Shown: in pieces, positions 1-17,347 of the stretch
How the letters are laid out: every line of letters begins with the position of its first letter
Position numbering within the stretch: position 1 is the stretch's first letter
DNA from: Escherichia coli
GTDB taxonomy: Bacteria; Pseudomonadota; Gammaproteobacteria; Enterobacterales; Enterobacteriaceae
Length of the DNA stretch: 64,000 bases
Direction: 5' to 3' (one strand)
Assembly: GCF_022846255.1 (NCBI RefSeq)
Contig: NZ_AP025682.1
The notes under the pieces: model-generated
Databases searched by the model: none
Seen by the model: only the letters and a program-made list of their open reading frames with translations
Told to the model about the DNA's origin: nothing
Program-made: the position numbers and the translations under genes

Positions 1-587
1 TTTCTGTCCAGTTCTATTTCATTCCAGTTAGATAAAACAAATTTTTCGTCAAATAACGTAAAAGGTAATACTGCTGTCCAGCCAACAACATAACCATTCC
101 AACCATTCGTTTGACCATATTTAGCTGAGACGTAGTCACCAGATTGATTATGTAATCCAATATACGGTTTAAAAAAGCCCCACTCGCCGTTCCAGCCGAG
201 GTAACCGAATCCATAAAACATATCAAGATCGTCACCCCATGAGTTATCCCATTGGCCATAAATTTTGCCAAAGAATGTCATATCAGAGTCAAAGAGTCTG
301 ACATGCGTCATTGCTGAAACCGTATGATTTCTCCCTGCTACAGCATGATTGAGTACATTACTTTCATAAAATGAGTAAAATTCTGCTTCTTTAAAATTTA
401 CCCCAAAATCCGCAGTCACTTTCCATACTTCACCACGGTGAGTGTTTACAAATCCACTATTCCAGTCTGCATAACCCGCATTTATTGAACCAAAGGTTCC
501 TTTATATTCTAATGAAGAATATGCAGGAAAATGATAGATAGCTGTTATCAGGGTACACGCAATAAGAAGTCGTCTTTTGGCAGACAT
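1..587 (-). CDS. Partial CDS (N-terminal ~195 aa; 3' end lies beyond window start): putative outer-membrane beta-barrel channel, Tsx/OmpK-like
   Basis: Minus-strand ATG at 585-587 opens a frame that runs uninterrupted to position 1. N-terminus MSAKRRLLIACTLITAIYHFPAYS resembles a Sec signal peptide. Mature part is W/Y/G/N/D/F-rich with motifs EAEFYSFYES and GFGYLGWNGEWGFF, reminiscent of Tsx-family porins. AT-rich. Family assignment by eye only. Confidence 0.55.
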   Translation of the reverse strand, partial: MSAKRRLLIACTLITAIYHFPAYSSLEYKGTFGSINAGYADWNSGFVNTHRGEVWKVTADFGVNFKEAEFYSFYESNVLNHAVAGRNHTVSAMTHVRLFDSDMTFFGKIYGQWDNSWGDDLDMFYGFGYLGWNGEWGFFKPYIGLHNQSGDYVSAKYGQTNGWNGYVVGWTAVLPFTLFDEKFVLSNWNEIELDR

Positions 588-1098
588 ATAATATGTTCTC
601 CATTCATTGTTTTTATGATTCCATAGGAATTAATACACCAGACAATTCATTTTTATTAAGAATGACCAGGCCAGTATATTTAAAGATGACTATCGAAGCG
701 TGATGAAGATCGCAGATTACTTTTGCGAACGGGCGGAGAGATATCGTGTTTCAGAAAATGTGTCTGTTTTAAATATCACCCTTTGATTTATAGGCATTTT
801 TCATGATGAACTTAGCATTGACTGCTGAACGTATTTCTTTGTCTCTCTATAGTATTACACTAACCTTTAATAATTAATTTCCTTTAGCTATTCACTTTTG
901 ATAGAGGAAAACACCTTTTTTTGTGAATCCATGGATATTTTTAAGTTAAATAAATTGATGTATTGAAATATTATTCCGTAAAAATGCGAGGCGTCTTCAG
1001 AAAAAGAATTGATAAAACAGAAGTGAATTAAAAGCGCTGTATAATAGCGGCGGGTGCTTGAGGCTATCTGTCTCAGGCATTAGCTGAACGGCAGATAG

Positions 1099-1153
1099 AG
1101 AAAAGCCCCGAGTGATATTTTACCATCAACCCGAGGCCCCCTATATGCTGAAC
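1099..1153 (-). ncRNA. sokC: sokC-like antisense RNA of the hok/sok type I toxin-antitoxin locus (position inferred)
   Basis: Placed antisense to the mokC translation start by analogy with hok/mok/sok loci. Boundaries are not determined from the sequence itself. Confidence 0.4.
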
Positions 1154-1354
1154 ACATGTAGAGTGCCTCTTACTGACCGTAAGGTCAAGGAGAAGAGAGC
1201 AATGAAGCAGCATAAGGCGATGATTGTCGCCCTGATCGTCATCTGTATCACCGCCGTAGTGGCGGCGCTGGTAACGAGAAAAGACCTCTGTGAGGTTCAC
1301 ATCCGAACTGGCCAGACGGAGGTTGCTGTTTTCACGGCTTACGAATCCGAGTAA
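1145..1354 (+). CDS. mokC: MokC, overlapping leader/regulatory ORF of hokC
   Basis: ORF beginning MLNTCRVPLTDRKVKEKRA and reading through the hokC frame; same stop as hokC. Confidence 0.7.
   Translation: MLNTCRVPLTDRKVKEKRAMKQHKAMIVALIVICITAVVAALVTRKDLCEVHIRTGQTEVAVFTAYESE
1202..1354 (+). CDS. hokC: HokC (Gef) type I toxin, 50 aa small membrane peptide
   Basis: Translation MKQHKAMIVALIVICITAVVAALVTRKDLCEVHIRTGQTEVAVFTAYESE is recognised as the Hok/Gef family peptide. Confidence 0.9.
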   Translation: MKQHKAMIVALIVICITAVVAALVTRKDLCEVHIRTGQTEVAVFTAYESE

Positions 1355-1428
1355 GAGCAACGGCGGGGAGTGATCCCCGCCACTTTACAGGTGCTCGCAT
1401 ATCTTCAACGCACCCTGTTTTTTACCTG

Positions 1429-1450
1429 GCCTGCCCACGGGCAGGCTTTT
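1429..1450 (+). terminator. GC-rich hairpin followed by TTTT in the hokC-dnaJ intergenic region; candidate intrinsic terminator
   Basis: Inverted repeat gcctgccc acg ggcaggc followed by tttt. A second GC hairpin at 1362-1384 may serve the convergent dnaJ transcript. Confidence 0.4.
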
Positions 1451-1457
1451 GGGGAGG

Positions 1458-2588
1458 TTAGCGAGTCAGGTCGTCGAAAAACTTCTTCACACCATCAAAG
1501 AAGCTCTTTGAGCGCGGGCTGTTGTGCTCGCCGGTTGGGCCACCGAAGCTTTCTTGCAGCTCTTGCAGCAGCTGTTTCTGCTTCTCGTTCAGGCCTACCG
1601 GTGTTTCGACGACAACGCGGCACAGCAAATCACCCTGTGCGCCACCGCGGACAGACTTGACGCCTTTACCGCGCATACGGAACAGCTTACCGGTCTGGGT
1701 TTCGCCAGGCACTTTCAGTTTGACGCGACCATCAAGAGTCGGTACTTCGATTTCGCCACCCAGCGCCGCCATAGCGAAGTTGATCGGGACTTCGCAATAG
1801 AGGTTGTTGCCTTCACGCTCGAAAATCGGGTGCTGTTTAACCTGAACCTGAACGTACAGATCGCCTGCCGGTGCGCCATGCTCGCCCGCTTCACCTTCGC
1901 CCGCAAGACGGATGCGGTCTCCAGTGTCCACTCCTGCCGGGATTTTAACGGACAGCGTTTTGCTGCGCTCAACACGACCATGACCATGACATTTGTTGCA
2001 CGGATCTTTGATCAGCGTACCGCGGCCCTGACAGTGTGGACAGGTCTGCTGTACAGCGAAGAAGCCCTGACGCATCTGCACCTGACCAGAACCATGACAG
2101 GTCGGACAGGTCTGCGGCTGTGTACCTGGTTTTGCACCGCTACCGTGGCAAACGTCACACTCTTCCAGAGTCGGAATGCGGATCTCTTTGGTCACGCCAC
2201 GTACAGCTTCTTCGAGGGTGAGCTCCATGTTATAGCGTAAATCAGCACCGCGCGCCGCACGTTGACGACCACGTCCGCCGCCAAAAATATCGCCGAAAAC
2301 GTCACCAAAAATATCGCTGAAGTCTGCGCCGCCGCCAAAACCGCCGCCGCCCATGCCGCCTTGCTCAAACGCAGCATGACCATACTGATCGTATGCCGCA
2401 CGTTTTTGCGAGTCGGTCAGAACTTCATAAGCTTCCTTGATCTCTTTAAATTTCGCCTCGGCCTCTTTGTCACCCTGGTTACGGTCCGGGTGGTATTTCA
2501 TGGCCAGGCGTTTGTAGGCCTTTTTGATTTCACGCTCTTCCGCTGTTTTGGAAACGCCTAAAATCTCGTAATAATCTTGCTTAGCCAT
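1458..2588 (-). CDS. dnaJ: Chaperone DnaJ (Hsp40)
   Basis: 376 aa starting [12 protein letters not shown] with J-domain HPD motif, G/F-rich region and four CxxCxGxG zinc-finger repeats. The ORF-track start is an upstream alternative codon; I trimmed to the MAKQ start. Confidence 0.97.
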
Positions 2589-2676
2589 CTTTTTTGATTT
2601 GCCCCTAGATGAATGCACGGGCGGAGAGGAAATTCCCCTTCGCCCGTGTCAGTATAATTACCCGTTTATAGGGCGA

Positions 2677-4593
2677 TTATTTTTTGTCTTTGACTTCTTC
2701 AAATTCAGCGTCGACAACATCGTCATCTTTCGCGTTGTTTGCAGAAGCATCAGCACCGGCAGTCTGCTGCTGGGCATGTTGCTGCTGGGCGATTTCCATC
2801 AGTTTCTGGGAAACCTGTGCCAGTTCCTGCATTTTCGCTTCGATAGCGGCTTTGTCTTCACCTTTCAGAGCAGTTTCCAGTGCAGTCAGCGCAGACTCGA
2901 TAGCAGTTTTGTCGTCAGCCGGCAGTTTGTCGCCTGCTTCTTCAACCTGCTTACGGGTGCTGTGCAGCAGATGGTCGCCCTGGTTGCGAGTCTGTACCAG
3001 CTCTTCAAACTTACGGTCAGCTTCGGCGTTAGCTTCTGCGTCGCGTACCATTTTCTGGATTTCATCTTCGTTCAGACCAGAAGAAGCCTTGATAGTGATC
3101 TTCTGCTCTTTACCGCTGTTTTTGTCTTTCGCGGAAACGTGCAGGATACCGTCAGCATCGATATCGAAGGTAACTTCGATCTGCGGCATGCCGCGCGGTG
3201 CCGGGTTGATACCATCCAGGTTGAACTGACCCAGAGATTTGTTATCAGCCGCACGTTTACGTTCACCCTGCAGCACATGGATGGTTACCGCAGACTGGTT
3301 GTCTTCAGCGGTAGAGAACACCTGGCTGTGCTTGGTCGGGATAGTGGTGTTTTTCGCGATCAGCGTGGTCATCACACCGCCCATGGTTTCGATACCCAGA
3401 GACAGCGGGGTAACGTCCAGCAGCAGTACGTCTTTTACGTCACCAGTCAGAACACCACCCTGAACAGCAGCACCGATGGCTACAGCTTCGTCCGGGTTAA
3501 CATCTTTACGCGGCTCTTTACCAAAGAATTCAGCAACTTTCTTCTGAACCATTGGCATACGAGTCTGACCACCAACGAGGATAACGTCGTCGATATCAGA
3601 TACGGACAGGCCAGCGTCCTGCAGTGCAACTTTCAGCGGCTCAATGGAACGGTTTACCAGATCTTCAACCAGGCTTTCCAGTTTCGCACGAGTCACTTTG
3701 ATGTTCATGTGTTTCGGACCGGTCGCGTCTGCAGTGATGTACGGCAGGTTAACGTCGGTCTGCTGAGCGGAAGACAGTTCGATTTTCGCTTTTTCTGCCG
3801 CTTCTTTCAGGCGCTGCATTGCCAGCGGATCGTTGCGCAGGTCAATGCCCTGATCTTTCTTGAATTCTTCAACCAGATAGTTGATCAGACGACTGTCGAA
3901 GTCTTCACCACCCAGGTGGGTATCACCGTTGGTTGCCAGAACTTCGAAGGTTTTTTCGCCGTCAACTTCGTCGATTTCGATAATGGAAATATCGAAAGTA
4001 CCACCACCCAGGTCATAAACCGCGATAGTACGGTTGCCAGTACCTTTGTCCAGACCGTAAGCCAGCGCAGCTGCGGTCGGTTCGTTGATGATACGTTTTA
4101 CTTCCAGACCAGCGATACGGCCTGCGTCTTTGGTTGCCTGACGCTGAGCATCGTTAAAGTATGCCGGTACGGTAATAACAGCTTCAGTTACCGGTTCACC
4201 CAGGTAATCTTCAGCGGTTTTCTTCATTTTTTTCAGCACTTCAGCAGAGATCTGCGGCGGTGCCATTTTCTGGCCTTTAACTTCGACCCATGCGTCGCCG
4301 TTATCAGCAGCAATAATTTTGAACGGCATGATGGAAACATCACGCTGTACTTCTTCGTCCTGGAAGCGGCGGCCAATCAGGCGTTTAATCGCAAACAGGG
4401 TGTTTTGCGGGTTCGTCACTGCCTGACGTTTAGCCGGCTGACCAACCAGAGTTTCACCATCCTGGGTATAGGCAATGATAGAAGGCGTGGTGCGATCGCC
4501 TTCGGCGTTCTCCAGTACACGAGGAGTGGTGCCATCCATAATCGCTACACAAGAGTTGGTAGTACCCAGGTCGATACCAATTATTTTACCCAT
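2677..4593 (-). CDS. dnaK: Chaperone DnaK (Hsp70)
   Basis: 638 aa starting [17 protein letters not shown] with Hsp70 signatures; immediately upstream of dnaJ. Confidence 0.98.
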
Positions 4594-4639
4594 CTAAACG
4601 TCTCCACTATATATTCGGTCATCATGTGGTTGTGAGTCT

Positions 4640-16660: not shown

Positions 16661-17347
16661 TTATTTGGTGATATTTTTTTCAATATCATGCAGCAAACGG
16701 TGCAACATTGCCGTGTCTCGTTGCTCTAAAAGCCCCAGGCGTTGTTGTAACCAGTCGACCAGTTTTATGTCATCTGCCACTGCCAGAGTCGTCAGCAATG
16801 TCATGGCTCGTTCGCGTAAAGCTTGCAGTTGATGTTGGTCTGCCGTTGTGTCACTTTTCGCCGGTTGTTGTATTAATGTTGCTAATTGATAGCAATAGAC
16901 CATCACTGCCTGCCCCAGATTGAGCGAAGGATAATCCGCCACCATCGGCACACCAGTAAGAACGTCAGCCAACGCTAACTCTTCGTTAGTCAGCCCGGAA
17001 TCTTCGCGACCAAACACCAGAGCGGCATGGCTCATCCATGAAGATTTTTCCTCTAACAGCGGCACCAGTTCTACTGGCGTAGCGTAGTAATGATATTTCG
17101 CCCGACTGCGCGCAGTGGTGGCAACAGTGAAATCGACATCGTGTAACGATTCAGCTAGTGTCTTGAAAACTTTAATATTATCAATAATATCACCAGATCC
17201 ATGTGCGACCCAGCGGGTGGCTGGCTCCAGGTGTGCCTGACTATCAACAATCCGCAGTTCGCTAAAACCCATCGTTTTCATTGCCCGCGCCGCTGCCCCA
17301 ATATTTTCTGCTCTGGCGGGTGCAACCAGAATAATCGTTATACGCAT
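16661..17347 (-). CDS. lasT: SpoU-family tRNA/rRNA methyltransferase LasT (YjtD)
   Basis: 228 aa starting MRITIILVAPARAENIGAAARA; ORF-track start trimmed. Confidence 0.85.
   Translation of the reverse strand: MRITIILVAPARAENIGAAARAMKTMGFSELRIVDSQAHLEPATRWVAHGSGDIIDNIKVFKTLAESLHDVDFTVATTARSRAKYHYYATPVELVPLLEEKSSWMSHAALVFGREDSGLTNEELALADVLTGVPMVADYPSLNLGQAVMVYCYQLATLIQQPAKSDTTADQHQLQALRERAMTLLTTLAVADDIKLVDWLQQRLGLLEQRDTAMLHRLLHDIEKNITK

Follow-up and report, generated by a model that had tools for sequence, protein, structure and literature searches.

An uninterrupted chromosomal hokC/mokC/sokC locus beside dnaJ in Escherichia coli and its predicted R1-like mRNA switch

The genes hokC (gef), mokC and sokC, together with the IS186 element that inactivates the locus in K-12, have been described since 1989-1999. 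An allele free of the insertion raises the question of whether a chromosomal hok locus retains every element of a type I toxin-antitoxin system and what such an allele may do for its host. The allele considered here lies in the window (the whole 64,000-nucleotide stretch of E. coli DNA that was analyzed), in which positions 1-4600 are the dnaK-dnaJ region, reversed relative to K-12. There, a + strand ORF of 50 codons (1202-1354) is situated between a - strand OMP gene (3-587) and the convergent dnaJ gene (1458-2588, -). With a probability of roughly 0.85, the ORF belongs to an uninterrupted allele, free of IS186, of the chromosomal type I toxin-antitoxin locus hokC(gef)/mokC/sokC, for which we propose an R1-like mechanism. 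It is the form already described for wild E. coli, and it represents neither a new member nor a new variant. Its annotation value is that the window holds the complete allele common to approximately 70% of complete E. coli genomes.

The present analysis demonstrates the identity and synteny of the locus and finds each of its elements present and conserved. The ORF product, MKQHKAMIVALIVICITAVVAALVTRKDLCEVHIRTGQTEVAVFTAYESE, matches Pfam PF01848 (HOK_GEF) with E=1.8e-24 and 85.5 bits (cut-off 22) over the whole 42-position profile, and hokC DNA is identical to K-12 b4412 in alignment. As expected of the hokC ortholog, the gene has HokC-type sequence and adjoins the dnaJ 3' end, with its stop codon 104 nt from the convergent dnaJ stop. 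Rfam family RF01794 ("sok") matches 1052-1204 over its full model length (120.5 bits against a gathering score of 59, E=3e-28). It is the hok-sense strand that matches, over the whole mRNA leader between tac and the hokC AUG, and not the antisense RNA SokC (1153-1095, -), so taking the strand from Rfam would mis-annotate sokC. In RefSeq/PGAP, the 50-aa hokC CDS carries the label "mokC: type I toxin-antitoxin system toxin MokC" in the window and in five RefSeq loci. The 69-codon mokC frame and sokC are absent from the RefSeq annotation of the loci read, and K-12 alone has all three features.

A sequence-only reading had placed an intact hokC/mokC/sokC locus at 1099-1354, and Pfam, the K-12 alignment and Rfam find all three genes there. 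The comparison with known hok/sok loci that it suggested also bears it out, as the coding DNA is that of K-12 hokC, RF01794 matches, and the architecture agrees with the R1 type. The interval is the span of the three K-12 gene annotations, but the promoter and tac (1040-1098) fall outside it, as does the 3' UTR (1355-1450); it is too narrow because tac, the 3' stem-loop, fbi and the terminator, which decide intactness, fall outside it. The features that decide completeness (Table 1) sit outside the annotated genes. The word "intact" is justified for the sequence and the predicted RNA structure, where every computable regulatory element is present and mutually consistent, and no further than that.

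Table 1. Elements of the hokC/mokC/sokC locus, in window coordinates
Element	Position	Strand	Remarks
Predicted mRNA promoter, -10 TATAAT	1040..1045	+	6 nt before conserved 5' end; -35 weak and variable; read from sequence
Predicted full-length hokC/mokC mRNA, ~398 nt	1052..1450	+	Ends predicted
tac, GGGUGCUUGAGG	1052..1063	+	Partner is fbi (full-length mRNA) or ucb (truncated mRNA)
Metastable 5' hairpin of nascent transcript (predicted)	1053..1081	+	tac pairs with sequence directly downstream
sokC antisense RNA gene	1095..1153	-	5' end 1153, 3' end ~1095-1099; maps onto K-12 sokC b4413 (16952..17010)
ucb, anti-Shine-Dalgarno box	1103..1116	+	Predicted to pair with mokC SD region 1125-1137 (full-length) or tac 1052-1059 (truncated)
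mokC Shine-Dalgarno GAGG	1133..1136	+	8 nt 5' of mokC ATG; nearly invariant in the 20-homolog alignment
mokC SD/dcb hairpin of truncated mRNA (predicted)	1133..1169	+	dcb is 1155-1169; loop and upper stem bear SokC target at mokC start
mokC frame, 69 codons	1145..1354	+	In frame with hokC, common stop; as K-12 b0018
Predicted sokC promoter	1160..1188	-	-35 TTGACC (1188->1183), 17-nt spacer, -10 CACTCT (1165->1160), +1 1153
hokC Shine-Dalgarno AAGGAG	1187..1192	+	9 nt 5' of hokC ATG; overlaps sokC -35 on opposite strand
hokC (gef) toxin CDS, 50 aa	1202..1354	+	ATG 1202, TAA 1352-1354
UACG motif at Tyr47	1340..1343	+	A1341 is the reported TadA A-to-I site, Tyr to Cys
3' stem-loop, GGCGGGGAGUGAUCCCCGCC	1362..1381	+	Presumed 3' end protector of truncated mRNA; unoccupied IS186 target
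fbi, CUUCAACGCACCC	1403..1415	+	Complementary to tac, with one bulged C
Predicted intrinsic terminator, GGCCUGCC-CACG-GGCAGGCU + UUUU	1428..1450	+	GC-rich hairpin, 8 nt from convergent dnaJ stop

Translational coupling of mok and hok is the step on which toxin synthesis would depend, and the coupling elements that the sequence-only reading called for are present: the mokC Shine-Dalgarno (SD) sequence stands before a frame that reads open across the hokC start. The same reading had described an overlapping mok frame as the canonical arrangement; a mokC frame does exist, but it is in frame with hokC, unlike R1 mok. In the window, mokC is an in-frame N-terminal extension of hokC. Homologs were compared in a MAFFT alignment of 20 sequences from Escherichia, Pseudocitrobacter, Kluyvera, Citrobacter, Photorhabdus and one unclassified metagenome-assembled genome. 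Relative to hok, mok is in frame 0 in the window, in frame 0, +1 or +2 among the 20 homologs, and in frame +1 in the R1-type locus; because all three occur, the frame of mok is not a defining feature. In-frame mok, giving an extended Hok of 68-70 aa, is found in hokC and in Photorhabdus, +1 mok is R1-like with 56-69 aa, and +2 mok consists of 19-20 codons that stop at or just past the hok ATG. This variation fits the view that translation across the hok start is all that matters. The CAAGG of the hokC SD is invariant in the alignment.

The probable ends of the mRNA can be read from conservation. Across the 20 homologs, conservation starts abruptly at 1052 with GGG(U/C)GCUUGAG, which is also where the Rfam sok model begins. 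K-12, O157, E. albertii and other alleles all retain TATAAT, and the bases upstream of it vary. Near the other end, the 3' stem-loop is an 8-bp hairpin in all folds and is near-invariant in the 20 homologs, including Photorhabdus, while fbi is identical in all 5 IS-free Escherichia alleles compared. The putative terminator hairpin agrees with E. albertii at 29/29 bases; it was not called by the terminator scan because it is followed by four T only. An alternative mRNA end at the T-run 1416-1423 was rejected, as alleles do not conserve this run and the loop of its hairpin measures 15 nt. The sole terminator-like match of the scan lies inside hokC (1296-1284, -) and was taken as chance, with 0.7 expected per region.

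The antisense gene differs from K-12 sokC by one base (w1139), where five other Escherichia alleles compared have C. In its predicted fold (-23.1 kcal/mol, z=-4.95), SokC begins with 9 unpaired nt, continues as a long hairpin and ends in a U-tail; the unpaired 5' tail is complementary to the mokC start region within the predicted hairpin of the truncated mRNA. We infer the sokC promoter on two grounds: its geometry is right, and its sequence equals that of K-12, in which sokC is annotated as an ncRNA. A sigma-70 consensus scan of 900-1500 called no promoter on either strand. The mRNA -10 box was not called because no -35 reaches 4/6 matches, and the sokC promoter was missed because its -10 matches 2/6 consensus positions; in most paralogs aligned, that position reads TAATCT. 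The null result is not counted against the promoters; the hok -10 spells TATAAT in full, with no -35 to go with it, and the sok promoter region is that of K-12.

RNA folding yields an R1-like switch in which tac and fbi are paired in the full-length mRNA, as the sequence-only reading had proposed to check, and this predicted two-state fold is demonstrated in the present analysis. The minimum free energy of 1052-1449 is -167.8 kcal/mol; for 1052-1428, z=-5.9 and 0/100 shuffles folded as well, which argues that the mRNA fold is not due to chance. Alone, the first 34 nt (1052-1085) form a 12-bp hairpin (-17.7 kcal/mol) that sequesters tac. In the full-length mRNA (1052-1428 or 1052-1449), tac and fbi pair with p=0.97-1.0 (12 pairs, 1052-1063/1403-1415), ucb (1105-1116) pairs with 1125-1137, which includes the mokC SD GAGG (p=0.97-0.99), and pairing of the SD with dcb has p=0. 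When the mRNA is cut after the 3' stem-loop (1052-1388), tac pairs with 1103-1109 in ucb (p~0.8), ucb-SD pairing is at ~0.18, and the SD pairs with dcb (p=0.73-0.79), which places the mokC start atop a hairpin. It is therefore predicted from these folds that full-length mRNA hides the mok ribosome-binding site and that 3'-trimmed mRNA exposes the SokC target. Metastable, closed and open states have been described for R1 hok mRNA (PMC9841398), and the folds computed for the window correspond to these three states.

Comparison among homologs supports the helices of the closed state. In the 20 sequences, 89.9% of cells in these helices are paired; sliding the 3' partners by 1-3 columns lowers this to 30-45%. 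The structure tested was derived from the window sequence itself. Five pairs have changes on both sides, and the observed covariation score was reached in 0/500 shuffles. Pair 4 of the tac-fbi helix is UA in 13 sequences and CG in 5, with a compensatory U-A to C-G change in Photorhabdus homologs, and three ucb-SD pairs changed on both sides (AU:10/GC:9, AU:8/GC:8 and GC:13/AU:5). The SD-dcb hairpin keeps its 5 basal pairs in 19-20/20 homologs. The tac-ucb helix is 99% paired and invariant; since it never varies, it fits the model and yields no covariation evidence. MAFFT shifts the outer tac-fbi pairs by one column in Photorhabdus, whose homologs have no bulge, so the "not paired" counts at tac-fbi pairs 7-12 understate conservation; by eye, Photorhabdus GGGCGCUUGAGA pairs perfectly with UCUCAAGCGCCC.

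Some alleles depart from this pattern. The tac sequence is the same in all but one of seven Escherichia alleles compared, the exception being strain 2013C-4282. This genome is the closest to the window, and its one mismatch is a G-to-A change in the second base of tac (w1053), where the window has the consensus base; in 2013C-4282, pairing of tac with fbi as well as with ucb would be weakened. One hok copy of Photorhabdus khanii keeps the ORF, the 3' stem-loop and fbi, and its tac/ucb/mok leader is replaced by unrelated sequence, a truncation like that of hokD.

We infer which promoters are used, where the transcripts end, how they are processed at the 3' end and cleaved by RNase III, that the mRNA is edited, and any killing phenotype. 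By homology with R1 hok/sok, the weak promoter would give the ~398-nt mRNA, and during its synthesis tac would be held by the 5' hairpin. In the finished mRNA, tac and fbi would be paired and ucb would mask the mokC ribosome-binding site. This closed full-length mRNA would be neither translated nor bound by SokC, forming a stable, inert pool. Slow 3' trimming to the stem-loop would take away fbi; tac and ucb would then pair, and the mokC ribosome-binding site would enter the dcb hairpin that displays the SokC target. SokC (~59 nt) would pair over the mokC start, blocking translation of mokC and with it the coupled translation of hokC, and the SokC-mRNA duplex would presumably be cleaved. If SokC drops, ribosomes on mokC may open the hokC start and allow synthesis of the 50-aa membrane toxin.

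Editing of the toxin codon is probably a further control of toxicity, in which TadA would convert Tyr47 to Cys through A1341. In K-12, TadA is reported to edit 9% of hokC mRNA (A-to-I) at the Tyr codon of the UACG motif, giving the Cys that is already encoded in the genes of other Hok proteins (PMC12214031). Two Pseudocitrobacter homologs have Cys (TGC) hard-coded at the codon aligned to 1340-1342, which is consistent with Cys recoding by hokC editing.

Flanking regions and insertions indicate how widely the allele is distributed. The locus is found in 5,425/5,426 complete E. coli genomes, and the CDS is named mokC or Hok/Gef in each listed match that covers it. The hokC-dnaJ junction is uninterrupted in 3,814 of the 5,426 (70%), and the remainder break at window 1366-1377; the uninterrupted form is the majority form in E. 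coli. The sequence-only reading had noted strain-variable content on both sides, with an empty IS186 site to the right and a Tsx-like gene to the left, and both observations hold. The site is unoccupied in the window according to the K-12 junction alignment, and the junction varies among the 5,426 genomes. The left flank is found in 933 of them (17%), and other genomes diverge from the window at ~934-943, with nhaA as the left neighbor.

The left gene (3-587, -), which continues beyond the left end of the window, is OmpK in RefSeq. Its full-length homolog matches Pfam Channel_Tsx (E=3.9e-13), and a Pfam search with the truncated product in the window (195 aa) gave no match. In strain RMDEC465, a sulfatase gene comes after the Tsx/OmpK-family gene. 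E. albertii has the same OmpK-like/hokC/dnaJ order, and the AT-rich spacer 588-1039 is only 69% identical between the two. On the dnaJ side, the dnaK-dnaJ intergenic region (2589-2666, -) matches Rfam tpke11 (RF02031) with 68.8 bits against a gathering score of 43. In E. coli ESBL_DR28 (NZ_CP067250.1), an IS150 upstream cuts the mRNA leader before window 1127, and an IS186/IS421-family element lies downstream. Insertions seem to be drawn to both flanks of hok loci.

Comparison with E. albertii gives an estimate of constraint. Third codon positions are identical at 50/50 sites in hokC, 328/376 in dnaJ and 153/195 in the OmpK-like gene, that is, differences of 13% in dnaJ, 22% in the OmpK-like gene and none in hokC. 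By simple arithmetic on 50 codons and two comparisons, the chance of 0 changes in 50 sites at the dnaJ rate is ~0.001. The UTRs differ at 3/93 and 7/78 positions, and this speaks against the whole locus having been transferred very recently. Synonymous conservation of hokC would fit a constraint on the whole mRNA, as judged from very few sites.

On the in vivo activity of IS-free chromosomal hokC, the secondary sources conflict. A 2026 preprint reports that the IS-free hokC of ECOR24 gave no post-segregational killing and no rifampicin response, and an older paper calls the ECOR hok loci active (PMC1635323). The preprint reports that over-expression of HokC is toxic, and CRISPRi knock-down of sokC was strongly deleterious in K-12 (bioRxiv 10.1101/2020.03.04.975888). 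We tentatively consider, at somewhat less than even odds, that uninterrupted chromosomal hokC is a conditionally active toxin maintained by selection under three stacked RNA-level controls: the closed tac-fbi mRNA, repression by SokC and recoding of Tyr47 to Cys by TadA. If this is true, the synonymous-site conservation of hokC would reflect selection on the structure of the whole mRNA. The locus could instead be complete in sequence and physiologically silent, a relic kept by conservation from which, at single copy, no toxin is ever released. In favor of such a relic, an insertion that parts fbi from hokC is tolerated in approximately 30% of complete E. coli genomes, one strain carries both an IS150 upstream and an IS186-family element downstream, and the putative hok and sok promoters are weak by consensus. 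A silent relic is nevertheless unlikely: the locus is missing from only one of the 5,426 genomes and has an annotated CDS in each listed match covering it, all regulatory helices are retained with compensatory changes, and hokC synonymous sites are more conserved than those of dnaJ. The deleterious sokC knock-down, reported even for K-12, the toxicity of over-expressed HokC and the description of ECOR loci as active in the older paper also speak against silence.

A role for neighboring genes was also considered, in which the RNA structures would mainly act, for example, as terminator or insulator for the convergent dnaKJ operon, with the Hok frame incidental. The region does lie between two housekeeping operons, and the hairpin next to the dnaJ stop is 100% conserved relative to E. 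albertii, but the T-run of this hairpin is on the hokC strand and not on the dnaJ strand. In addition, the ORF is a strong HOK_GEF match, and paralogs with this layout of leader, ORF and 3' region are found elsewhere in chromosomes, at unrelated sites, and on thousands of plasmids, which makes such a role highly improbable.

The closest known system is hokC/mokC/sokC of K-12 MG1655 (b4412/b0018/b4413), which is the same locus in the same place beside dnaJ. Between the -10 box and the IS186 junction (w1040-1377), only two bases set the window apart from K-12 (w1066 and w1139), and the HokC and MokC proteins are identical. The left flank differs, with nhaA in K-12 and the OmpK/Tsx-like gene in the window. 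In K-12, IS186A is inserted in the 3' stem-loop, 19 nt past the stop codon, whereas in the window the target is present once and is empty; both K-12 junctions carry GGGAGTGATCCC, which occurs once in the window (1366-1377). IS186 prefers targets with G-runs or C-runs. With IS186A in the stem-loop, fbi and the terminator of K-12 are 1.3 kb off, on the dnaJ side. When the K-12 transcript was extended 150-250 nt into IS186 and folded, tac-ucb had p=0.95-1.0, ucb-SD ~0 and SD-dcb 0.9-1.0. The K-12 mRNA is thus predicted to be permanently open, with no inert reservoir, whereas the window mRNA would be closed. Loss of the closed mRNA is the accepted rationale for K-12 hokC being inactivated (PMC3562002; PMC12214031), and it is in this decisive respect that the window allele departs from K-12. 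For the question of chromosomal hok function, the IS-free allele is the right substrate, not the K-12 allele.

The IS-free hokC of wild E. coli is represented by ECOR24, which is described, in papers citing Pedersen and Gerdes (1999), as having the same uninterrupted layout of tac, fbi, mok and sok. Its hokC transcript is given as ~330 nt (PMC3562002), which matches the predicted truncated mRNA of the window, 1052 to ~1385. The plasmid-borne hok/sok of R1, for which post-segregational killing is proven, was represented by an R1-type locus from the IncF plasmid NZ_LS992188.1. Like the window, this locus has tac with GGCGCUUGAGG at the 5' end, fbi with AAGCGCC at the 3' end, a ~398-nt mRNA and an antisense RNA over the mok start, as well as a GC-rich 3' stem-loop and a UACG Tyr codon near the C-terminus. 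The Hok proteins of R1 and the window are only ~41% identical. R1 mok has 70 codons, starts 58 nt before hok and is out of frame with it (numbering of PMC9841398), whereas mokC is in frame.
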